A stretch of 64,000 nt of DNA from Candidatus Nanoarchaeia archaeon (lineage in GTDB: Archaea > Nanobdellota > Nanobdellia > Woesearchaeales > WJIZ01): NCBI GenBank assembly GCA_028279765.1, contig JANQND010000002.1:28784-92783 (forward strand), read 5' to 3'. How positions within the stretch are numbered: position 1 is the stretch's first letter; the number at the start of each line of letters is the position of its first letter. Both the position numbers and the translations under genes were made by a program. Positions 71 through 22,180 of this stretch are shown one piece after another. A model generated the notes under the pieces. That model was not told the DNA's origin. It saw nothing but the letters and a program-made list of their open reading frames with translations, and did no database searches.

Positions 71-1006
71 TTATAAAACTTCTTTAAAATAGTCGATGGT
101 GTCTTTCAGTCCCTGTTCAAGCTCAATGTTAGGCCGCCAGTTAAGCTTTTCATTTGCCAAACGAATATCAGGCTTCCGCATGATAGGATCATCCTTAGGC
201 AGTTCTCTAAATCCAATCTTTATTGAAGATCCAGTAAGTTCAATAACTTTCTCTGCAAGTTCAAGAACAGTAAATTCATGCGGGTTTCCCAAATTGATAG
301 GTCCGGTAATTCCCTCCTTGTTCATCATGGAAACTATGCCTTCAACAAGGTCAGAAACATAACAGAAGCTTCGCGTTTGCCTCCCATCTCCATATGCTGT
401 AATATCTTCACCCTTGAGTGCCTGGACAATAAAATTAGAAACCACGCGTCCGTCATTCGATGCCATCCGTGGCCCATAAGTGTTAAAAATTCGTATGACA
501 CGAATATCAACATCATGCTGCCGGTGATAGTCAAACATCAGTGTCTCTGCACATCGCTTTCCCTCATCGTAACATGCACGAATGCCAATAGGGTTTACGT
601 TTCCCCGATATGATTCTGTCTGCGGGTGCTCCAGTGGATCACCATATACTTCGGAAGTGGATGCCTGAAGAATTCGTGCGTTATGCTTGAGGGCCATGCC
701 AAGCATATTCGTTGTCCCCAAAACATTTGCCTTAATGGTTCGAATAGCATTATATTGATAGTGGACCGGAGATGCCGGGCAGGCAAGATTATAGATCTGG
801 TCGATCTTTTCATTGTCAATAAAGAGCGGATTGATAATGTCATGCTCGATTAATCTGAAATTCGGGTTCTTCATCAGGTGTTCAATATTCTTTTTTGTTC
901 CCGTAAAGAAATTATCAACACAAATTACTCTGTTTTTCTCAATTAATGCATCACAAAGATGGCTTCCTAGAAAGCCTGCTCCTCCTGTTACAACGATGGT
1001 TTTCAT
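71..1006 (-). CDS. uxs: UDP-glucuronate decarboxylase (UDP-xylose synthase), extended SDR
   Basis: GGAGFLG Rossmann motif; [20 protein letters not shown] and YDEGKR motifs typical of UXS. Confidence 0.92.
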
Positions 1007-1743
1007 GGGGTAAATTCTTTTCTTGCCTTTTCTAATTGCTCAAGTGATCCGATATCAAACCAGTTTTTATCGCTGACATAACAATACACCTCTTCCTTAT
1101 TGTAGAGCCATTCCAGGAAATTTCCGGCTTTATCAGCATCATGGTTTTTGGTAAATACAATCAGTTCCTGGATTGTTTTTTGAGGATACACATAGATCCC
1201 CGTTGAAGAGAGAGTAGATCTCGGCTGGTCTGGTTTTTCCTCAAAGTCGCTAATCTTGCTCTCCTCATCAATCGAAACAATGCCATATAACTTTGCAAGC
1301 TCAATATCCTTGACATCATAGAGCGCAACCACTGACCTTCCTTTTTGCCTGAACAAATCAACCATGGGTTCAAGAGAAAATTCAAACAGGTTATCCCCTG
1401 CAATAACCATGACATCATCCTCTATCTGCATATTCTCAACGACGAATCGAATGTCACCAAGAGACCCCAATCGATCGTCATTAGACATGGTTTTATCATT
1501 AACAATGGTTACTGGTTTACTGCACTCAAACCCCGCGTTCCAGTCCAGGAAATGGGTAAAGAATTTATTATTGGTCACCACGTAAATAGTGTCAACCTCA
1601 TCAGCAGCCTCAATTTTCTTTATAATGTGCTCAATGATGGGCTTGTCCTTCACGTCCAGCAATGGCTTAGGTTTATCCTTTGTAAGGGGATAGAGTCGGG
1701 TTGCATAGCCTGCGGCTAGGATTATTGCTTTAATGGTACTCAC
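1003..1743 (-). CDS. Sugar-1-phosphate nucleotidyltransferase (NTP_transferase family)
   Basis: [30 protein letters not shown] and WFDIG motifs; GTG start with GAGG upstream. Confidence 0.9.
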
Positions 1744-1824: not shown

Positions 1825-3129
1825 TTATACTCCTCTTCCTACTCCCTTGTATGCAAAGCCTGCTTGCTTCATTTCTTCAGGATCGTAAACATTTCTCCCA
1901 TCCATGATGTTGGGGTGTGCCATCAACGATTTCATCTTTTCCTTATCGAGGTTTCTGAATTCGTTCCACTCCGTTACAATAACCAAAAGATCAGCATCTG
2001 CAAGGGCATCATAGGGAGTTTTTGCAAAGGAAACATCATTTATTATTCGCTTAGCTGTCTCTTCTGCTTCCGGGTCAAAAGCGACAATGTGAGCTCCTTC
2101 TTTTTGTAGCTGATCAATCACCACCAGGGAAGGCGCCTCGCGCATATCATCGGTTTTGGGCTTAAAGGATAGTCCCCAGACAGCAACTTTTTTGTCCTTG
2201 AGATCCGGCACTAATTCTTTAATTTTGGGAAGCAGTGATCGTTTCTGGTCGTGGTTGACCGTCTCCACAGCCTCCAGGATCAATCCGTTTACCCCGTTTG
2301 CTTTCATAGTTTCGCGAAAAGCATTTACATCTTTAGGAAAGCAGCTTCCGCCATATCCGGCGCCTGCCTGAAGGAATCGGGGGCCAATGCGATTGTCAAG
2401 GCCCATTCCCTTTGCAACCATTTTCACGTCAGCACCCACCTTTTCACAGAGCTGGGCTACCTCATTCATAAAGGAAATTCTGGTTGCAAGCATAGCATTG
2501 CTTGCATACTTGATCATTTCTGCGCTTTTCACATCAGTAAACAGGATAGGTTTGTCAACGCGTGCTATTCCTTTGTAGATCTCTTCAAGCACTTTTTTTG
2601 CTTTTTCAGAGGCTGTTCCTACGACAATGCGGTCAGGGTTGGTGAAGTCACCGATAGCCTCTCCCTCTCTCAGGAACTCAGGGTTAGATACCACATCAAA
2701 ATCAATCTCTTCTTTCTGATTTTCTTTAATGACCTGTGCAACCATATCCGCTGTTCCGACAGGGACAGTACTCTTATCAATAATGACCTTATAATCGTTC
2801 ATATGCTCTCCAATGGATTTTGCAACTGCCCTCACAAAAGAGAGGTCTGCTTCATGATTTTTGCCGGGAGGGGTGCCAACCGCAATGAAGATCGCCTTAG
2901 ATTTCTGGATCGCATCCTTGATATCGGTAGTAAATACTATTCTTCCCTCTGCACGGTTCCGTTTAAGCATATCTTCAAGCCCGGGCTCATAAATAGGGAC
3001 TCCTCCAGAATTGAGAAGGCTGATCTTTTTCTCGTCTACATCAACGCAAATAACTTCGTTTCCTAGGTCTGAAAGGCATGTTCCGGCAACAAGGCCAACA
3101 TATCCTGATCCAATAACTGCAATGTTCAT
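1825..3129 (-). CDS. ugd: UDP-glucose 6-dehydrogenase
   Basis: GSGYVG, NPEFLREG, GYGGSCFPKD (catalytic Cys) and FKPKTDDMRE; GGAGG ribosome-binding site. Confidence 0.95.
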   Translation of the reverse strand: MNIAVIGSGYVGLVAGTCLSDLGNEVICVDVDEKKISLLNSGGVPIYEPGLEDMLKRNRAEGRIVFTTDIKDAIQKSKAIFIAVGTPPGKNHEADLSFVRAVAKSIGEHMNDYKVIIDKSTVPVGTADMVAQVIKENQKEEIDFDVVSNPEFLREGEAIGDFTNPDRIVVGTASEKAKKVLEEIYKGIARVDKPILFTDVKSAEMIKYASNAMLATRISFMNEVAQLCEKVGADVKMVAKGMGLDNRIGPRFLQAGAGYGGSCFPKDVNAFRETMKANGVNGLILEAVETVNHDQKRSLLPKIKELVPDLKDKKVAVWGLSFKPKTDDMREAPSLVVIDQLQKEGAHIVAFDPEAEETAKRIINDVSFAKTPYDALADADLLVIVTEWNEFRNLDKEKMKSLMAHPNIMDGRNVYDPEEMKQAGFAYKGVGRGV

Positions 3130-3164
3130 TCATAAAACCTCCATCATTGTTTTTGGAGCACTGC

Positions 3165-3215
3165 TTTAAATATCTTACCCTTATCCTACTTTATCCGATA
3201 TATTTAAATACCTAC
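3165..3215. promoter_or_regulatory. Divergent promoter with tandem TATCYTAC-like direct repeats (putative RHH operator)
   Basis: TATCTTAC 3171-3178, TATCCTAC 3182-3189 and TATCCGAT 3192-3199, spaced 10-11 bp apart between two TTTAAATA boxes. Confidence 0.5.
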
Positions 3216-3232
3216 AGGAGAATAAAAGGGAA

Positions 3233-4030
3233 GTGAAGAAGAAAATATCCATCACTGTTGAGAATTCTCTCATAAAAGAAATTGATACTATCATTGACCA
3301 TATCTATATCCGAAACAGATCGCAGGCAATAGAGCACCTCATCAGTACAGCGCTCGGAGAAAACCGTACCGCTGTAATCATGGCAGGAGGAGATGAGGAA
3401 AAAATCAGGATCGGAAAAGAATTCCGTCCCACTATTCTGATTAAGAAGAAAAGCGTGATTGAGCGCGCAGTGGAAAAATTGCGCGGGTCCGGTTTTAAAA
3501 ATATCTATATTATTGCGCGCCAGGCTGTGCTCACAAAAATATTTGACATCCTTAGGGACGGGACAATCTATAGCGTAAAGATCAACTATATCGAGGAAAA
3601 AAAATCCAATGGGTCAGCAGACTCCCTGCGGCTCCTCAAGGGGAAGATTGACTCGGATTTTTTGGTCGTCTATGGAGATATTCTGTTCAGCAAAATCAAT
3701 CTTGACGAGTTATGGAACGACCATCTCAGGCATAATGCAGCAGCAACCATCATGATGACGACCTCTCCTCGGCCGTCCGAGAAAGGGACCTTAAAAGTCG
3801 AGGGAAATAAAGTGCTCACCTTTACCCAAAAGCCAAAAGAGTCAGATATTTATCTGGTGTTTTCGCCTATTTTTGTGGCCAGCAAAGAAATACTGGAATA
3901 TAGCGGGTCAAGCTTTGAAAAAGATGTGTTTCCTCAAATGGCATCAAGGAGCCTGCTCAATGGCCATTTTAGCTCGGAAAAAGAGACTCATATACACACA
4001 CTCAATGATGCAAAAAAGATGGAGAAGTGA
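3233..4030 (+). CDS. Ribbon-helix-helix (CopG/NikR-like) domain fused to a degenerate nucleotidyltransferase domain; putative regulator
   Basis: N-terminal KKISITVENSLIKEID...NRSQAIEHLI is an RHH pattern; it is followed by AVIMAGG...VVYGDILF (NTP_transferase fold) without the GxGTRL..PK motif. Confidence 0.75.
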   Translation: MKKKISITVENSLIKEIDTIIDHIYIRNRSQAIEHLISTALGENRTAVIMAGGDEEKIRIGKEFRPTILIKKKSVIERAVEKLRGSGFKNIYIIARQAVLTKIFDILRDGTIYSVKINYIEEKKSNGSADSLRLLKGKIDSDFLVVYGDILFSKINLDELWNDHLRHNAAATIMMTTSPRPSEKGTLKVEGNKVLTFTQKPKESDIYLVFSPIFVASKEILEYSGSSFEKDVFPQMASRSLLNGHFSSEKETHIHTLNDAKKMEK

Positions 4031-4038
4031 AAAAAAGG

Positions 4039-4151
4039 TGGACAGCTTTCTTGGTTTCCCGTACGGAAATACAGTACTGCCAAAAACGGAGACGTTCTTA
4101 ACTTCCGTGTTCGAAATGAGAACGGGTGAGCCACGTCCCTATGGCCGTCCA
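4039..4151 (-). rRNA. rrf: 5S ribosomal RNA (stand-alone)
   Basis: Minus strand reads UGGACGGCCAUAG...CACCCGUUCUCAUUUCGAACACGGAAGUUAAG...AGUACUG...GGGAAAC...GCUGUCCA; termini pair; TTTATAAA box upstream and T-tract downstream. Confidence 0.93.
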
Positions 4152-4215
4152 GAAGAAAGGAATAAAAAATCATTTATAAATGTGTCGGTAAAAGAAAGAG
4201 AAAAATGGTATCATC

Positions 4216-5148
4216 ATGAGAATTCGAAAACTTGCTATTAGTGCAGTCAGGTCCCTGCTCAGCATCATTCTCTTTAGCCTGATCCTCACAGCAACGACAG
4301 ACATCAGCCAGCAGGATGCGATTGGAAGCCTCTTTGGCCAGATCTACGACTTTGCGGATGGGAAGAGTAAGCAGGAAATGCTCGCTTCTTTTGGTGTTAT
4401 TTGCGAAAATGTACTAGATGATAAGACAGAGCAGATAGTGCAGTTCAAAGAACTCTGCCAGGATGATGATGCCCGCGCAAAAGTGCTGGAAAATTGCGAT
4501 AAATACAATACGATGCTGCAGACAGGGCAAATTGAGCCTGATCTCAATTTAGAAGAAATCTGCAGGCCGGATTTTTTTCGCACCCTGGAGGAGAACTGCA
4601 AAATCCTGGAGCAGGAGCCTGACCTGGAAATGAAAGGGATAGGAAACTCCTGCGAGCAGCACAAAAATAAGATTATCTCAGATAAAGAATTCTTCCAGCA
4701 AATCATTAACAATTTACCTGATCTTCCGCAGTTAAAAGTTCATCCTTCTTCCTCTGCACTCCTTTTCCTCTCTATTATCGCAGTGGTTCTCATTCTGATC
4801 CTGCTGGTACTGCATCAGGCAGATGCAAACGGGTTCTTCTTCACTATAGGGAGGATTTTGTTCAATCTGGGAATATTGTTCGCTATCACTTTTATCTTCC
4901 TGTATGCCTACACGCAGACAGCATCGATCGATACGTCACCTATTCTCAATGCCATGCTCAATCCCGATGCGGGTAATGCCATAGAGCAGGCAGTTCCCTC
5001 AGTAGTTGCGGTAGTACCATTCATCATGTGGGAATTTTTCAGTACGATCCATTTCATTGTCGCTGGATTGCTGATTATTATTGGACTGGCCATTAAGATC
5101 ATCTTCGGGCATCGAATAAAGAAAGAAAAGGAAATGAGGAGAGAATAA
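4216..5148 (+). CDS. Membrane protein with a Cys-patterned extracellular domain, function unknown
   Basis: N-terminal hydrophobic segment, 6 Cys in the soluble region, about 3 C-terminal TM helices. Confidence 0.6.
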   Translation: MRIRKLAISAVRSLLSIILFSLILTATTDISQQDAIGSLFGQIYDFADGKSKQEMLASFGVICENVLDDKTEQIVQFKELCQDDDARAKVLENCDKYNTMLQTGQIEPDLNLEEICRPDFFRTLEENCKILEQEPDLEMKGIGNSCEQHKNKIISDKEFFQQIINNLPDLPQLKVHPSSSALLFLSIIAVVLILILLVLHQADANGFFFTIGRILFNLGILFAITFIFLYAYTQTASIDTSPILNAMLNPDAGNAIEQAVPSVVAVVPFIMWEFFSTIHFIVAGLLIIIGLAIKIIFGHRIKKEKEMRRE

Positions 5149-5157
5149 TTCGCTTAA

Positions 5158-6423
5158 TTATCGAAGATGTGCAACAGTATAATTCCCTCCGTGTTCAGGA
5201 TGCATTTCTTTACTATCTTCAAAAGTAATAGGAGTATGATAGTCTTTACCACCAATATTTACGACGGTTTTATTTCTTAACAGAGATTTGCTGATTCGGT
5301 AAGCTGGGCTGGTTACAGACCTTGGAGCTCCAAAAAAATAGGGCATCTCAAGAGTATCACCTCCCTCAACTACAAAAACAGTGAGGCCTTCGAAAATTTC
5401 CTCTACTTCAGGTTTAGAAAGAACCTCTCCCTTGCCTTCCAAAGTAGCTAACTGTTGCCCTTTTGCCTCGCTAATAAGTGATTTTTCTTTTAGACGATCA
5501 AGCAGTTTTTGTGCATAGTCTAAACCAGTTCCATTATCTTTTGGTCTCAAGGGACCAACATTAGTAATGAATATTGCGTCTGGTCCATATCCTACTAGGA
5601 GCATGCGGTAGATAAAATCTAAAGAGGCAAAGGTGACTGCTTGGGCAAGACCCTTCTTTCTATAACCGTCTTTAGTGAGCCACCCTCCTAATTCTACAAT
5701 AGTAGTCGCGTTTTTCATAAGTTGAGCGCCACTAATCACTTCATACCCTCCCAAAGGAGTGAGGCGATATTTTGGTTTAGTGAAATTACTTCCATGCCAA
5801 GTCTTGGCATAGGCCCTACTAACAATTTGTCCAGTGCCTTTCTCCTCTGCAACAAAACCAACAATGCCCTTGACACCTGCCTGAAAAGTATAACCATGTT
5901 TCGTAAGTTTTTTCAGGGTTGGCACATCCAGTTGCTCGGTAAGTGCAGGGTCTGAAAAAGAGGCAACTTGCTTAAAGTCTTCTGAAGTCATTGCCCTGAT
6001 AAGAAAGTTTCCATGCTCAAACACAGGTAATTCAATTTGCTTTCGTTTAGCATTGATAACCAAAGATACTTTTCGTTTTAGTAAAACCTTTTCTTCTTCA
6101 ATAATCGAGATTGTTTGCTGCAACTCTGTATGAACTTCAGAGACCCATTCTTTCGAGCATTTTCCCCGGCCGAGGTGAGAAATAAGGTTATGAAGTAGTT
6201 TGATCTCTTTTTTAAAACGAGTAGGGTCAGTATTATACTGGGCATGGATCTTTTTGAGTACATGTTCAATTTTTTTAACTTCTTTTCTCAGGTTACTAAT
6301 TTTTCGCTGAACTTTTGCATCCCATAAATAACCCAAGTCACGTTTTACATACCCAAGGATTTGCTCCCAGAGTTCATGCATTTGTTGCTCGTCCTTTTCC
6401 AGCTCTCTTGTTTTAGAAGCCAT
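5158..6423 (-). CDS. Hypothetical protein: N-terminal helical region plus GNAT-like acetyltransferase domain
   Basis: 421-aa ORF with GGAG upstream; VELGGWLTKDGYRKKGLAQAV resembles GNAT motif A (R/QxxGxG/A). Confidence 0.5.
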   Translation of the reverse strand: MASKTRELEKDEQQMHELWEQILGYVKRDLGYLWDAKVQRKISNLRKEVKKIEHVLKKIHAQYNTDPTRFKKEIKLLHNLISHLGRGKCSKEWVSEVHTELQQTISIIEEEKVLLKRKVSLVINAKRKQIELPVFEHGNFLIRAMTSEDFKQVASFSDPALTEQLDVPTLKKLTKHGYTFQAGVKGIVGFVAEEKGTGQIVSRAYAKTWHGSNFTKPKYRLTPLGGYEVISGAQLMKNATTIVELGGWLTKDGYRKKGLAQAVTFASLDFIYRMLLVGYGPDAIFITNVGPLRPKDNGTGLDYAQKLLDRLKEKSLISEAKGQQLATLEGKGEVLSKPEVEEIFEGLTVFVVEGGDTLEMPYFFGAPRSVTSPAYRISKSLLRNKTVVNIGGKDYHTPITFEDSKEMHPEHGGNYTVAHLR

Positions 6424-19874: not shown

Positions 19875-20306
19875 ATGTCAAAAATCGCAATCGTTCGAGT
19901 ACGGGGAATCATAAATACACGAAAAGAAATAGAATCCACCATGAAGATGCTTCATCTGCATAATAAAAACTATGCAGTAGTGGTCGAGGATACTCCCCAG
20001 AACAAAGGCATGATCTCAAAAGTAAAGGATTTTGTAACCTTCGGCCCGCTTGACGAGGAAACCTTCAAAGAGATGGTTTCAAAGCGCGGTGAAGAATACA
20101 CCGGTAGGTTAACGGACAGCAAGGGCAAGATTGAGTACAAGACAAAATATGTTGAAGTAGACGGAAAGAAGTATAAGAAGTTCTTCCGTCTGTCTCCTCC
20201 GAAAAAAGGCTATGGTGCGAAAGGCATCAAGCAGTCCTTTGTAAAGGGCGGTGCCTTGGGCAATCGCGGAGAGAAAATGAGTGATCTTATCAAGAGGATG
20301 ATCTAA
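19875..20306 (+). CDS. rpl30: 50S ribosomal protein uL30
   Basis: IAIVRVRG, FRLSPPKKG and GGALGNRG motifs. Confidence 0.96.
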   Translation: MSKIAIVRVRGIINTRKEIESTMKMLHLHNKNYAVVVEDTPQNKGMISKVKDFVTFGPLDEETFKEMVSKRGEEYTGRLTDSKGKIEYKTKYVEVDGKKYKKFFRLSPPKKGYGAKGIKQSFVKGGALGNRGEKMSDLIKRMI

Positions 20307-20307
20307 A

Positions 20308-20757
20308 ATGGTCGTTAATCAGCGTAAAAAAAATACCAGGCAGCGTGCCAAGACTACCCACGGATGGGGTTCCATGAAGAAACACCGCGGTAAGGGTAAC
20401 AAGGGCGGTGCAGGTATGGCAGGAACAGGAAAGCGCGGCGATGCCAAAAAGCCCTCGATCTGGAAACGAAAATACTTCGGAAAATTCGGCTTCAAGAAGA
20501 AAGGCCAAGCCGCTGATGTTAATGCACTCACCCTCTATCAGTTAAATGAAAAGATCGAACAGCTGGTTGCACAGGACAAAGTAACCAAAAAAGAAGATAC
20601 ATTTATAATTGACCTCAATTCCTTTGGATATAACAAGCTTCTAGGCTCTGGCGTGATGAGCAAAAAAGTCAACGTGACCGTTGATTCTGCCTCAGAGAGT
20701 GCCAAAAGTAAGATTAATAAAGCCGGCGGAGAAGTAATCACCAAGAAAGAGGAATAA
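20308..20757 (+). CDS. rpl15: 50S ribosomal protein uL15
   Basis: THGWGSMKKHRGKGNKGGAGMAG and KLLGSG motifs. Confidence 0.97.
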   Translation: MVVNQRKKNTRQRAKTTHGWGSMKKHRGKGNKGGAGMAGTGKRGDAKKPSIWKRKYFGKFGFKKKGQAADVNALTLYQLNEKIEQLVAQDKVTKKEDTFIIDLNSFGYNKLLGSGVMSKKVNVTVDSASESAKSKINKAGGEVITKKEE

Positions 20758-20761
20758 CGGT

Positions 20762-22180
20762 ATGTCTTTGTTCAAAAACATCATCTATAACCTTCCTGAG
20801 GTTGGTGGTCCCACCCAAAAAAAGCTCTCCTTTAAGGAAAAGCTCAAGTGGACCATGCTGATTCTCGTTATTTATTTCGTATTAGGGCTATTTCCTTTGT
20901 TTGGATTGGGACAGAATTCCCTGCAGAATTTTGAATTTCTCTCTATTATCTTAGGCGCACAGTTCGGATCCATTATTAGTTTAGGTATTGGTCCTATTGT
21001 TACCTCTTCTATCGTTTTACAGCTATTGAACGGATCCGGCATTGTGAAGTTTGATCTGTCTTCACATGAAGGAAAAAAGACCTTTCAGGGCGTGCAGAAA
21101 TTGTTATCACTCTTCTTCATTGTCTTTGAAGGCGCTATCTACGTCTTCATGGGCGGACTTGCTCCTTCTGCAAATTATGCAGGAACGCCGTTATTTCTTC
21201 AGCTGCAGTTAGTATTGATCTTCCAGTTAATACTTGGAGGTATCATGATCCTCTTCATGGACGAGGTAGTCTCTAAATGGGGCTTTGGCTCCGGAATCAG
21301 CCTCTTTATTGCAGCAGGAGTATCACAATCTATCTTTATTCAGGCTTTTAACTGGCTTCCCGGCCCAACAGGTCTTGAAGGGGTGACGTACTCTGCTGGT
21401 GCGATTCCTTCATTATTCCAGGCATTAAGTCAGGGCGATCCAACTACTGCTGGAATCAATTTAGCTGCTTTGCTTTCTACTGTCTTAGTGTTTGTGGTTG
21501 TTGTGTATGTGCAGGCAATGAAGGTAGAAATTCCTTTATCTTTCGGCAGGGTTCGAGGTCACGGTATTCGCTGGCCTTTGTCATTCATCTATACGTCCAA
21601 TATCCCGGTTATTTTGGTTGCTGCCCTCTTAGCTAATTTACAGCTTTGGGGTACCTTACTGCAAAACTGGATCGGTCCTAATATATTCGGTCGCTTTTCC
21701 GAGACCACCGGCCAGGCTGTAGGTGGTTTTGTGTACTGGGTACAGGCACCGAATATTGTGCGAACAATCATTGAGCAAAAAACATTATTCTTTGGATCTG
21801 ATCTGTATATCCAGTGTATCGTGTATGCCCTCTTTATGATTGCGGGGTCTGTTGTTTTCTCCGTCTTTTGGGTGCAGACCGCAGGCATGGATGCGCGCAG
21901 CCAGGCAAAGCAAATGATGTCTTCAGGACTGCAGATTCCTGGTTTTAGAAAAGACCAGAGAGTATTAGAGAGTTTGCTTAATAGGTATATTTGGCCCTTA
22001 ACCGTGATGGGCGGTGCAAGCGTTGGTTTAATGGCAGCGTTAGCGGATTTAACCGGTGCTCTGTCCCGTGGTACTGGAATATTGTTAGCAGTGATGATTA
22101 TTTATAAGTTATATGAAGATATTGCAAAACAGCACGCAATGGACATGAACCCAATGATGAGAAAATTCATGGGCAAGTAA
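20762..22180 (+). CDS. secY: Preprotein translocase subunit SecY
   Basis: LGIGPIVT, KWGFGSGISLFIA and YTSNIP motifs; multiple TM helices; follows L15. Confidence 0.97.
   Translation: MSLFKNIIYNLPEVGGPTQKKLSFKEKLKWTMLILVIYFVLGLFPLFGLGQNSLQNFEFLSIILGAQFGSIISLGIGPIVTSSIVLQLLNGSGIVKFDLSSHEGKKTFQGVQKLLSLFFIVFEGAIYVFMGGLAPSANYAGTPLFLQLQLVLIFQLILGGIMILFMDEVVSKWGFGSGISLFIAAGVSQSIFIQAFNWLPGPTGLEGVTYSAGAIPSLFQALSQGDPTTAGINLAALLSTVLVFVVVVYVQAMKVEIPLSFGRVRGHGIRWPLSFIYTSNIPVILVAALLANLQLWGTLLQNWIGPNIFGRFSETTGQAVGGFVYWVQAPNIVRTIIEQKTLFFGSDLYIQCIVYALFMIAGSVVFSVFWVQTAGMDARSQAKQMMSSGLQIPGFRKDQRVLESLLNRYIWPLTVMGGASVGLMAALADLTGALSRGTGILLAVMIIYKLYEDIAKQHAMDMNPMMRKFMGK

Follow-up and report, generated by a model that had tools for sequence, protein, structure and literature searches.

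An open reading frame on the plus strand (3233–4030, GTG start) of the window, the 64,000-nt stretch of DNA analysed here, very probably encodes a transcription factor, so far undescribed, that governs the supply of cell-surface sugars. Its 265-aa product, RHH-NTase, joins an N-terminal ribbon-helix-helix (RHH) domain to an NTP_transferase-fold domain that has lost the catalytic signature. The assignment was built on the identities of the two domains, the signature loss, the gene linkage, a conserved operator in the divergent promoter, the co-occurrence of operator and gene across genomes, and the tie between the operator and ugd. Judged from these sequence features, the protein is probably a one-component factor that binds the operator, represses ugd-NTase-uxs and senses an NDP-sugar with the remodelled domain. 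A literature search found no description of a regulator of this architecture, in agreement with the original prediction, which had named no characterised example.

Gene arrangement

The three genes ugd, NTase and uxs are all on the minus strand, and the RHH-NTase gene points the opposite way (Table 1). The ugd product matched all three UDPG_MGDP_dh domains in Pfam (E 2e-69, 3.5e-37 and 2.3e-36). The uxs product matched structures of human UXS1, a UDP-glucuronate decarboxylase, at E 1.5e-116 (phmmer). No tRNA was found in 3900–4300.

The original prediction had described a 265-aa fusion of RHH and NTP_transferase domains, divergent from ugd-NTase-uxs, with an eroded catalytic loop, EKP and WxDIG, and with three TATCY repeats one helical turn apart between two TATA boxes. 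All these features were recovered, as detailed below.

Table 1. Features of the RHH-NTase locus (positions in the window)
Feature	Position	Strand	Basis or remark
uxs, UDP-glucuronate decarboxylase (UDP-xylose synthase)	71..1006	-	Pfam Epimerase/GDP_Man_Dehyd; final gene of the proposed target operon
Unfused sugar-1-phosphate nucleotidyltransferase (NTase), intact signature	1003..1743	-	Pfam NTP_transferase 7.2e-42 and alignment
ugd, UDP-glucose 6-dehydrogenase	1825..3129	-	opens the divergent operon
Shine-Dalgarno-like GGAGG (minus-strand reading)	3138..3142	-	8 nt ahead of the ugd ATG; putative role, from sequence
Conserved operator block, 35 bp (TATA box 1 and three direct repeats)	3165..3199	+	conservation across 75 sources
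TATA box 1, TTTAAATA	3165-3172	+	sequence reading
Repeat 1, TATCTTACC (TATCT at 3171)	3171..3179	+	2-bp overlap with TATA box 1
Repeat 2, TATCCTAC (TATCC at 3182)	3182..3189	+	11 bp from repeat 1
Repeat 3, TATCCGAT (TATCC at 3192)	3192..3199	+	10 bp from repeat 2
TATA box 2, TTTAAATA	3203..3210	+	TATA-like consensus spanning +33 to +40 in the operator alignment
Ribbon-helix-helix domain, residues 1-46	3233..3370	+	family profile, RHH_1, predicted helices
NTP_transferase-fold domain, residues 47-265, remodelled active site	3371..4030	+	Pfam, alignments, AF2, Foldseek

The N-terminal ribbon-helix-helix domain

By itself, the N-terminus of RHH-NTase gave weak matches: NikR models at E about 2e-3, with only residues 3–46 matched, and RHH_1 at 0.068, which is under the Pfam cut-off for that family. 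A profile was built from 19 family N-termini. The best solved match of this profile was E. coli NikR (1q5v, 1.3e-9), and P. horikoshii NikR (8e-7), an RHH antitoxin (2.3e-6) and CopG (2.2e-5) were also matched. Pfam RHH_1 was matched by 17 of the 19 N-termini.

The beta-alpha-alpha pattern of the RHH superfamily, with alternating polar ribbon residues and a helix-B cap, was present. K4, S6 and T8, invariant in 32 aligned sequences, lie on the predicted beta-strand and correspond to R3, T5 and T7 of NikR. The helix-B cap, N28 R29 S30, was invariant in the family alignment, and helices were predicted at 11–22 and 29–40. The profile matches and this pattern indicated that the RHH domain is real.

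In the AF2 monomer, the N-terminal 42 residues had pLDDT <50. This was expected from the RHH fold, which exists only as a dimer. A dimer prediction with two copies of residues 1–48 scored 0.30, against a mark of 0.42, and weighs neither for nor against the RHH dimer. Thus the HMM and structure checks proposed with the original prediction yielded the NTP_transferase fold by Pfam, AF2 and Foldseek and the RHH domain by the family profile, but the AF2 monomer gave no confident N-terminus.

The remodelled nucleotidyltransferase domain

Residues 47–231 matched Pfam NTP_transferase (PF00483) at E 3.5e-19. The unfused neighbour reached 7.2e-42, and fused paralogues with an intact signature ranged from 1e-43 to 4e-53. 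AF2 was confident over residues 45–265 (pLDDT mostly 77–95, with a dip to 59–69 around 181–210). The best Foldseek matches were GDP-mannose pyrophosphorylase, a UDP-glucose pyrophosphorylase, RmlA, MurU and GMPPA/GMPPB (E 1e-17 to 1e-15). The Rossmann-like nucleotidyltransferase fold of PF00483 was therefore present.

The catalytic loop of RHH-NTase reads MAGGDEEKIRIGKEFRP, whereas the neighbour keeps the intact signature. The GxGTR...K signature has become G52 G53 D E55 E K ... F R65 P, which departs from the PF00483 loop, where GxGTR and the (P)K(P) after it hold the triphosphate. An invariant E55 is in place of the second Gly, the position of the loop Arg (57) is variable, and a near-invariant R65 is in place of the signature Lys. 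EKP has become Q199 K200 P201, in which Q199 replaces Glu. The WxDIG motif (WxDxG type) has become HIH, with H253 and H255 standing where the second metal-binding Asp belongs. The first metal-binding Asp, that of the GD motif, is retained as the invariant D149; the combination of two metal-binding Asp and EKP that marks PF00483 was not found.

The invariant residues were G52, G53, E55, E122, G127, D149, G185, Q199, K200, P201, H253 and H255, and likewise H245, E249 and E251. Mean column identity was 79% in 32 sequences, each 63–79% identical to the query. This pattern indicated that the domain was remodelled under selection and did not simply decay. Residual catalysis is conceivable from the retention of D149, K200 and P201.

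E122 occupies the base-recognition position, and it aligned to Gln in an RmlA and to Glu in GDP-mannose pyrophosphorylases. With both alignments, a UDP ligand was not readable from the sequence, and the assignment of the ligand through this residue was rejected as ambiguous between UDP and GDP. A metal-sensor reading of the invariant H245, H253 and H255 with E249 and E251 was set aside, because in the enzyme site H253 and H255 take the place of the second metal-binding Asp.

The operator and the divergent promoter

The operator was present in 75 of the 80 sources with upstream DNA: 45 copies were exact, and 73 had at most three mismatches (of 24 positions). Across the 75 sources, the block carried about 1.4–2.0 bits per position at most columns, and the flanks mostly 0–0.5 bits. 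The position of repeat 3 was occupied by TATACTAC or TATCCTAC in other species.

One occurrence of the repeat pattern was counted in the 64-kb window, where 0.04 would be expected, and matches appeared in 4 of 100 shuffles. The triple repeat is not due to chance, since it is kept in other species. The operator was also found only once in the 1.5-Mb genome from which the window comes, at the locus itself. A wider regulon in this genome was sought and rejected, as two-mismatch matches numbered three and the reversed-pattern control gave five.

The centre of TATA box 2 is 26–27 bp ahead of the GTG. This suggested a leaderless or near-leaderless regulator mRNA, from the presumed start site. The commonest distance from operator to start was 63 bp (18 loci), and in many species all three repeats sit between the TATA box and the regulator start codon. 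On the other side, taking archaeal promoter geometry as our guide to the BRE position, repeat 1 would fill that of the leftward (ugd) promoter.

No Rfam match at E up to 1 was found in 3050–3320, and the block thus belongs to no known RNA family. A sigma-70/terminator scan, which does not apply to an archaeal host, returned nothing.

Linkage and co-occurrence across genomes

In relatives, 66 of the 70 loci with at least 1500 bp of upstream sequence carried a divergent ugd there, and ugd, NTase and uxs were complete in 38 of the 60 loci with at least 4500 bp. In four genomes the regulator gene is unlinked and has no operator. In all four, the sole genomic copy of the operator was directly upstream of ugd, and the reversed-pattern control gave no match. 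The operator therefore belongs to ugd. These four genomes also indicated that autoregulation is not universal.

Among 401 sampled genomes, the orthologue was found in 51, an operator match in 51, and both in 42. All 39 operator matches with at most one mismatch were in orthologue genomes. The reversed-pattern control gave 8 matches. When the 185 ugd-bearing genomes were divided by the regulator, such matches were present in 38 of 46 with it and in 0 of 139 without it, although all these co-occurrence counts are confounded by kinship, in that orthologue, operator and ugd arrangement could be co-inherited. In the nine orthologue genomes without an operator match, TATCCTAC-type units in mutated or rearranged form were still present upstream.

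The survey of homologue neighbourhoods and upstream motifs that had been proposed was thus run. One outcome named as refuting the prediction, homologues devoid of both the repeats and a sugar-nucleotide link, was not seen: the operator was in 75/80 sources and ugd in 66/70 loci. The predicted tie of the regulator to a sugar-nucleotide operon was upheld by linkage and repeats conserved across dozens of species. The view of the repeats as its operator was strengthened by a site that stays with ugd when the regulator is unlinked, and by close matches confined to regulator genomes.

Proposed mechanism and alternatives

We consider it very likely that RHH-NTase is the factor that binds the 35-bp operator. 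The RHH domain would dimerise, and its beta-ribbon would enter successive major grooves at the three TATCnTAC units, 10–11 bp apart, which abut the TATA box shared by the divergent ugd/regulator promoter. Repeat 1 shares bases with the TATA box and, in the ugd promoter, would cover the BRE position. With this overlap, and with the repeats ahead of the regulator start, occupancy would most likely block TBP, TFB or RNA polymerase. RHH-NTase would thereby probably act as a repressor of ugd-NTase-uxs, and of its own gene where linked. The C-terminal domain appears to be a former sugar-1-phosphate nucleotidyltransferase, from which the GxGTR arginine loop is gone and in which the remodelled pocket is strongly conserved. 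The most likely ligand of this pocket would be one of the pathway's nucleotide sugars (UDP-xylose, UDP-glucuronate or UDP-glucose), and its binding would tune the affinity for DNA. That an NDP-sugar sets the activity is reasonably likely, and the outcome would be feedback control over the supply of surface-glycan precursors.

The same factor might instead activate ugd-NTase-uxs by recruiting TFB/TBP upstream of the ugd TATA box, perhaps while repressing itself. Archaeal activators bind upstream of BRE/TATA, and repeats 2 and 3, seen from ugd, are so placed, a geometry that likewise fits activation. An operator kept at ugd even with an unlinked regulator fits either sign. However, repeat 1 runs 2 bp into the TATA box and would take up the BRE position, the repeats cover the initiation region of the regulator itself (its start codon is 28–49 bp past the operator start in 23 of 73 loci), and the liganded RHH regulators NikR, MetJ, CopG and Arc are all repressors. 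Activation appears unlikely on these grounds. The sensing function could also be absent: the enzyme-like domain might only be an oligomerisation scaffold that aligns RHH dimers in a constitutive autoregulator with no small-molecule signal. NTP_transferase-fold enzymes form dimers to tetramers, and an operator of three repeats in helical register requires that binding be cooperative. VTC1 also dimerises, according to PMC9168903. But the invariant residues are concentrated in motifs that formerly contacted the ligand, which a scaffold alone would not need, and this possibility is improbable.

It is also conceivable that the protein is a still-active nucleotidyltransferase with an unusual loop, and hence a bifunctional enzyme-repressor like PutA or BirA. 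D149, G185, K200 and P201 are invariant, and the fusion tolerates catalysis, as seen from intact fused relatives with TATCATAC units upstream. This is nevertheless quite improbable for a protein in which the loop Arg position is not conserved, E55 replaces the second Gly and His replaces the second metal-binding Asp. The Pfam score is far under those of the intact relatives (E-values above), the operon has its own intact NTase, and the 36-row clade around the protein is wholly degenerate. Finally, another factor might bind the 35-bp block, or the block might be a constrained core promoter, with the fusion protein serving as a non-catalytic enzyme partner. GMPPA offers a precedent: according to PMC11228364, this paralogue is non-catalytic, binds GDP-mannose and has a regulatory effect on GMPPB. 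GMPPA/GMPPB were among the Foldseek matches. This explanation is very improbable in view of the conserved RHH domain with invariant ribbon residues in the fusion protein, of close operator matches found only with the regulator (none in the 139 ugd-bearing genomes without it), and of related fusion proteins that carry related upstream repeat units.

Comparison with known systems

As a probable repressor with a predicted sensor domain, RHH-NTase resembles NikR, a repressor of the RHH type that responds to nickel. The N-terminal RHH is of the same sequence type, a single polypeptide carries a C-terminal sensor domain (predicted in RHH-NTase) behind the DNA-binding domain, and the target is near the regulator gene. 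The sensor of NikR, however, is a small ACT-like metal-binding domain, whereas that of RHH-NTase has a 220-residue NTP_transferase fold, and its C-terminus did not show the ACT-like tetramerisation/nickel domain of the NikR family. NikR binds two inverted half-sites far apart, unlike the three direct repeats 10–11 bp apart found here.

CopG, Arc, MetJ and omega share the RHH fold and have operators made of short repeats in helical register, an arrangement that implies cooperative binding by several dimers. They are either small or detect SAM on the RHH itself, and none has an enzyme-derived domain.

In PutA, BirA and NadR, a DNA-binding domain is fused to an enzyme fold of the controlled pathway, as in RHH-NTase. 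PutA consists of an RHH and proline-catabolic enzyme domains, and all three are active enzymes of unrelated folds. The window protein, on the other hand, has lost the catalytic signature and in this departs from the PutA type. Its relatives with an intact loop may work in this way.

GMPPA, GalF and eIF2B gamma/epsilon have kept an NTP_transferase fold with a degenerate loop as a regulatory or ligand-binding module, and RHH-NTase likewise has this fold with a degenerate loop. GMPPA, whose fold was matched by Foldseek, binds the product of its pathway, GDP-mannose, according to PMC11228364. These proteins differ in acting through protein-protein contacts on a catalytic paralogue and in having a left-handed beta-helix domain. 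RHH-NTase had no Pfam match to a left-handed beta-helix/hexapeptide; it ends at residue 265 and has a DNA-binding domain instead.

The wider RHH-NTase family

The RHH-NTase fusion is common in archaeal genomes and is annotated there only as an enzyme. Records came from DPANN lineages, Altiarchaeales, a Methanobacteriota cluster and one organism named Candidatus Atabeyarchaeum, which we take to be an Asgard archaeon. By sequence, the window protein is a member of this large family, which is new here.

Fused relatives with fully intact GxGTRL..PKP, EKP and WxD exist, and the loop was strictly intact in 7 of 129 full-length representatives. Upstream of intact-type relatives, TATCATAC units were found in 22 of 30 loci, at 1.13 per window compared with 0.035 in 545 control windows. 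In the tree, the window protein fell within the 36-row clade, all members of which are degenerate. Intact and decayed forms sometimes share one genome. Another RHH-NTase paralogue adjoins the dTDP-rhamnose (rml) operon and has a conserved operator of its own.

These observations led to a broader proposal, which taken jointly we regard as plausible yet tentative: RHH-NTase fusions would form a large family of one-component regulators of nucleotide sugars, so far unrecognised in archaea, with a common TATCnTAC code, an evolutionary series and a role in glycan supply. In the shared operator code, TATCnTAC units may be set in helical register next to TATA boxes. Intact members may be bifunctional, both enzyme and repressor, and may control their own genes through the TATCATAC repeats. 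The catalytic loop may then have been lost once, giving rise to a clade of pure sensors. This clade may then have radiated, with paralogues beside the UDP-glucuronate/xylose, dTDP-rhamnose and other pathways.

Significance

To our knowledge, almost nothing is known of transcription control in DPANN archaea or of the archaeal regulation of nucleotide-sugar supply for surface glycans. Here the regulator, the operator and the target operon can all be named from the sequence. Because the operator is nearly letter-for-letter the same across species, gel-shift and ligand screens can be designed without culturing. RHH-NTase would show cleanly how an enzyme joined to a DNA-binding domain has become a sensor. 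With intact and decayed forms coexisting, the change of a moonlighting enzyme into a dedicated transcription factor is open to experimental comparison. Hundreds of entries titled 'nucleotidyltransferase family protein' would need re-annotation. If the broader proposal is true, transcriptional control of surface-glycan precursors in these small genomes could lie mainly with the RHH-NTase family.

Domain architecture of the proposed fused regulator

The original prediction of a ribbon-helix-helix (RHH) domain joined to an NTP_transferase fold, divergent from ugd-NTase-uxs, was confirmed by Pfam, an N-terminal family profile and the AF2 model. From the domains of Ugd and the match of Uxs to UDP-glucuronate decarboxylase, the operon is predicted to make UDP-glucuronate and UDP-xylose. 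Downstream of the regulator gene lay frames for a predicted membrane protein of 310 aa (4216-5148, plus strand) and a protein of 421 aa (5158-6423, minus strand). Neither gave a family above threshold; the latter had a weak GNAT-like match (E 0.008).

Coordinates of features in the window and in the loci of relatives (L numbers)
Feature	Position	Strand	Sequence or remark
uxs, short-chain dehydratase	71-1006	-	human UDP-glucuronate decarboxylase structures matched at 1.5e-116
unfused NTase paralogue	1003-1743	-	NTP_transferase 7.2e-42 (Pfam)
ugd	1825-3129	-	all three UDP-glucose dehydrogenase domains (Pfam)
TATA box 1	3165-3172		TTTAAATA
repeat 1	3171-3179		TATCTTACC
repeat 2	3182-3189		TATCCTAC
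repeat 3	3192-3199		TATCCGAT
TATA box 2	3203-3210		TTTAAATA
regulator start codon	3233		GTG
regulator ORF	3233-4030	+	265 aa, GTG start
rhamnose-linked RHH-NTase paralogues	L098:3786-4610, L099:3524-4345, L100:3845-4675, L101:3661-4488
first gene after operator, unknown 300-400 aa protein	L054:5007-5909, L041:4701-5903, L075:1709-2845, L070:325-1251	-
first gene after operator, GHMP-family sugar kinase	L031:607-1674	-
intein-bearing ugd/uxs frames	L010:3099-5759, L012:1731-3686	-

The N-terminus of the window protein alone was a weak match (NikR models, E about 2e-3; RHH_1, 0.068). A profile of 19 N-termini (the window protein and 18 diverse relatives), searched among solved structures, matched the RHH domain of Escherichia coli NikR at 1.3e-9, P. 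horikoshii NikR at 8e-7, an RHH antitoxin at 2.3e-6 and CopG at 2.2e-5. With 17 of the 19 also matching Pfam RHH_1 (best, 8.3e-11), the RHH assignment was upheld. Residues K2, K4, S6, T8, R27, N28, R29, S30, Q31 and A32 were invariant in 32 close family members. K4, S6 and T8 aligned with R3, T5 and T7, the DNA-contacting ribbon residues of NikR. The AF2 monomer placed helices at 11-22 and 29-40, with low confidence over residues 1-42, as would be expected (this is not proof) for a fold existing only as a dimer.

The NTP_transferase domain spanned residues 47-231 (Pfam, E 3.5e-19). The model was mostly confident from residue 45 on (mean pLDDT 77; 59-69 around 181-210). Its structural matches, at E 1e-17 to 1e-15, were GDP-mannose pyrophosphorylase VTC1, UDP-glucose pyrophosphorylase tlr0611, RmlA, MurU and GMPPA/GMPPB, which bore out a nucleotidyltransferase fold for the C-terminal part.

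The erosion noticed earlier in the catalytic loop and in the EKP and WxDIG motifs extended to the family alignment. The enzymes' L-x-G-G-x-G-T-R-L...P-K-P was replaced by GG-x-E-E-x-[LI]-[KR]...[YF]-R-P-T, in which E55 was invariant and the Arg position variable. QKP stood in place of EKP, and SSEKE-x-H-[IV]-H, with invariant H253 and H255, in place of WxDxG. Among 32 sequences, each 63-79% identical to the query, mean column identity was 79% and the invariant residues coincided with the former ligand-contact motifs. The catalytic signature was thus lost by remodelling under selection, not by decay. The base-recognition position is occupied by E122, whose counterparts are Gln in B. anthracis RmlA and Glu in GDP-mannose pyrophosphorylases; the residue therefore gives no readout of nucleotide identity.

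A conserved putative operator between ugd and the proposed regulator gene

The repeat pattern occurred once in the window, against 0.04 expected. Its conservation was followed in 80 loci encoding relatives 51-77% identical, all from Woesearchaeota/Nanoarchaeota-type MAGs. Their intergenic DNA was unalignable except for one block, TTTAAATATCTTACCnTTATCCTACtTTATnCnAnn. With the window there were 81 sources, 80 of which had at least 40 bp upstream. The operator core, scored over 24 specified positions, was found in 75 of these 80 with up to six mismatches (up to three in 73; exact in 45). Most of the 35 operator positions carried about 2 bits of information, and most flank positions 0-0.5 bits. 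The three direct repeats first noticed between two TATA boxes in the window were therefore kept across most of the relatives' loci. Five sources were missed: L049, where the gene is cut by the contig end and the upstream coordinate is meaningless, and L021, L042, L043 and L062.

The distance from operator start to start codon fell into two main layouts. In the longer one (39 of 73 loci, the window included), it was 56-72 bp, with a mode of 63 (also the window's value), and a second TATA-like box lay in between; from this position a leaderless regulator mRNA is predicted. In the short layout (23/73) it was 28-49 bp, the repeats covered the regulator's own initiation region, and the two genes seem to share one palindromic TATA box, TATTTAAATA. 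The other 11 loci had extra DNA inserted between operator and start codon.

In five loci (L010, L015, L016, L018 and L028) a related insert stretched this spacer to 226-361 bp. Copies from different species shared 75-87% identity over 100-150 nt, some lying in opposite orientation to others. The insert has internal inverted repeats and looks like a miniature mobile element.

Association of the putative operator with ugd and with the proposed regulator

Of the 70 loci whose upstream DNA reached 1500 bp or more, 66 had a divergent ugd, which lay no farther than 500 bp away in 59. Where at least 4500 bp was available (60 loci), ugd, the unfused NTase and uxs all lay on the opposite strand in 38, and ugd and uxs in 44. 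The neighbourhood and upstream motif described in the original prediction both recurred among homologues.

In some loci the first gene after the operator was not ugd. Four had a protein without a Pfam match there (in L054 and L041, ugd came next), and one had a sugar kinase (see the table). Inteins were present within the putatively regulated enzymes of several relatives. They lengthened ugd (to 886 aa) or uxs (to 651 aa) by an in-frame insert of about 1.0-1.4 kb, some 340-450 residues, that encoded Intein_splicing and LAGLIDADG homing-endonuclease domains. Tblastn matches were split for ugd in L011 and L045 and for uxs in L020, L039 and L068, and three sampled genomes had ugd open frames of 888-940 aa.

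The whole genomes behind L021, L042, L043 and L062 were searched for the operator, with the reversed pattern as a control. In each, a single copy was found away from the regulator locus (0-1 mismatch of 19; control, 0), and in all four this copy stood immediately before ugd, oriented as usual. This showed that the element belongs to the ugd promoter, and suggested that the regulator can work in trans. In the organism's own 1.5-Mb genome (90% complete), the sole exact copy was the window locus, and two-mismatch matches were not above control. The regulon seems confined to this promoter.

Co-occurrence was tallied in 401 genomes of the phylum, 148 of which matched the family (E up to 1e-30). An orthologue (best E up to 1e-80) was found in 51 and an operator match (up to two mismatches) in 51, with both in 42. 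We give counts, not a probability, since relatives are not independent; the tallies include five genomes flagged unpublished (G243, G244, G322, G333 and G360), on which no conclusion rests. All 39 matches with up to one mismatch were in orthologue genomes. The nine operator-only genomes all had exactly two mismatches, and were about as many as the matches to the reversed pattern (eight). All nine orthologue genomes without an operator match had TATCCTAC-type units upstream, either in the usual triple arrangement but with additional mismatches, or rearranged and inverted.

Among the 185 genomes with ugd, the operator (up to one mismatch) was present in 38 of 46 with an orthologue versus 0 of 139 without. 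The block is therefore not general to ugd promoters, and goes with the regulator protein.

One sampled genome, G350 (91% complete), had an operator-like block with two mismatches (C16:20229-20248) directly upstream of a 70% identical ugd (20287-21582). The orthologue was not found in it, only a paralogue-level match; either the regulator gene is unassembled or the paralogue has taken over.

The wider RHH-NTase family

With a cut-off of E 1e-3, 5014 relatives were found among 1.84 billion representatives. Of the best 150, most aligned from residue 1-3, and therefore carry the RHH. At least 7 of 129 full-length representatives kept the canonical GxGT[RK]L...PK loop. Sources of intact fused relatives were named Woese-, Nano-, Aenigm- and Parvarchaeota, Diapherotrites, Altiarchaeales and Candidatus Atabeyarchaeum (an Asgard archaeon), the proteins always merely as nucleotidyltransferases. 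In the Atlas, a Methanobacteriota cluster had RHH_1 on 80% of members.

Many sampled genomes had two or three fused paralogues. In four, a degenerate paralogue was divergent from a dTDP-rhamnose operon (RmlC, RmlB, RmlD-RmlA fusion). Just before the start it had its own conserved element, TTTAAATACTTTGTTGTTACT-nn-AGTAATA and then an inverted half-site of the GTATTAC type. This paralogue also adjoined GDP-mannose dehydratase genes, and its palindromic element, AGTAATAC-n4-GTATTACT, came right after a TATA box.

The operons that hold intact-loop paralogues also encode phosphoglucomutase and a GlmU-like enzyme; one such paralogue was divergent from ugd. TATCATAC units (up to one mismatch) lay upstream of 22 of 30 intact-type genes, at 1.13 per 106-bp window versus 0.035 in 545 control windows. 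Units formed pairs with a spacing of 10-11 bp at 7/30 loci versus 0/545 controls. From this enrichment, a TATCnTAC operator unit seems common to the family.

In a quick maximum-likelihood tree (74 rows, unfused enzymes as outgroup), the window protein fell in a 36-row clade (SH-aLRT 88; inner 29-row clade, 98). Every member was degenerate, including the rhamnose-linked and other degenerate paralogues, and intact forms occupied an unresolved basal region. The topology is compatible with a fusion that preceded the loss of catalysis, but its root and deep branches are weak. In the genome of the window, the intact relative (L139:1007-1792, contig C28) is unfused and has no RHH. Its motifs read GGEGTRLRPLT..PKAL, EKP and WFDTG, and the listed ORF begins 28 codons ahead of the likely MKAIIL start.

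Probable mode of regulation and candidate ligand

We commit to the window protein as the probable operator-binding regulator of ugd-NTase-uxs. Repression would be the likelier sign at the ugd promoter, because repeat 1 overlaps its TATA box and fills the BRE position, and because in the short layout all repeats cover the region where the regulator gene itself is initiated. Less probably, the same regulator would activate from repeats 2 and 3, which lie upstream of the ugd BRE.

The conserved and remodelled pocket suggests that the enzyme-derived domain senses a small molecule. UDP-xylose has a feedback role on UDP-glucose dehydrogenase in eukaryotes, which a nucleotide-sugar ligand would fit. 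By analogy with GMPPA, a non-catalytic paralogue described in PMC11228364 as binding GDP-mannose, a nucleotide-sugar of the pathway would be the natural candidate. Of the nucleotide-sugar-sensing regulator originally proposed, regulation at the DNA level gained support from the conserved operator, the ugd linkage and the co-occurrence; the ligand is a candidate.

In the full-text literature outside subscription journals we found no description of an RHH fused to a sugar nucleotidyltransferase, in line with the earlier statement that no characterised regulator of this architecture is known. Matching passages of PMC6393860 concern minimal-nucleotidyltransferase toxin-antitoxin modules. Judged from its sequence, the window protein would be a one-component regulator of the RHH type whose sensor derives from an enzyme.
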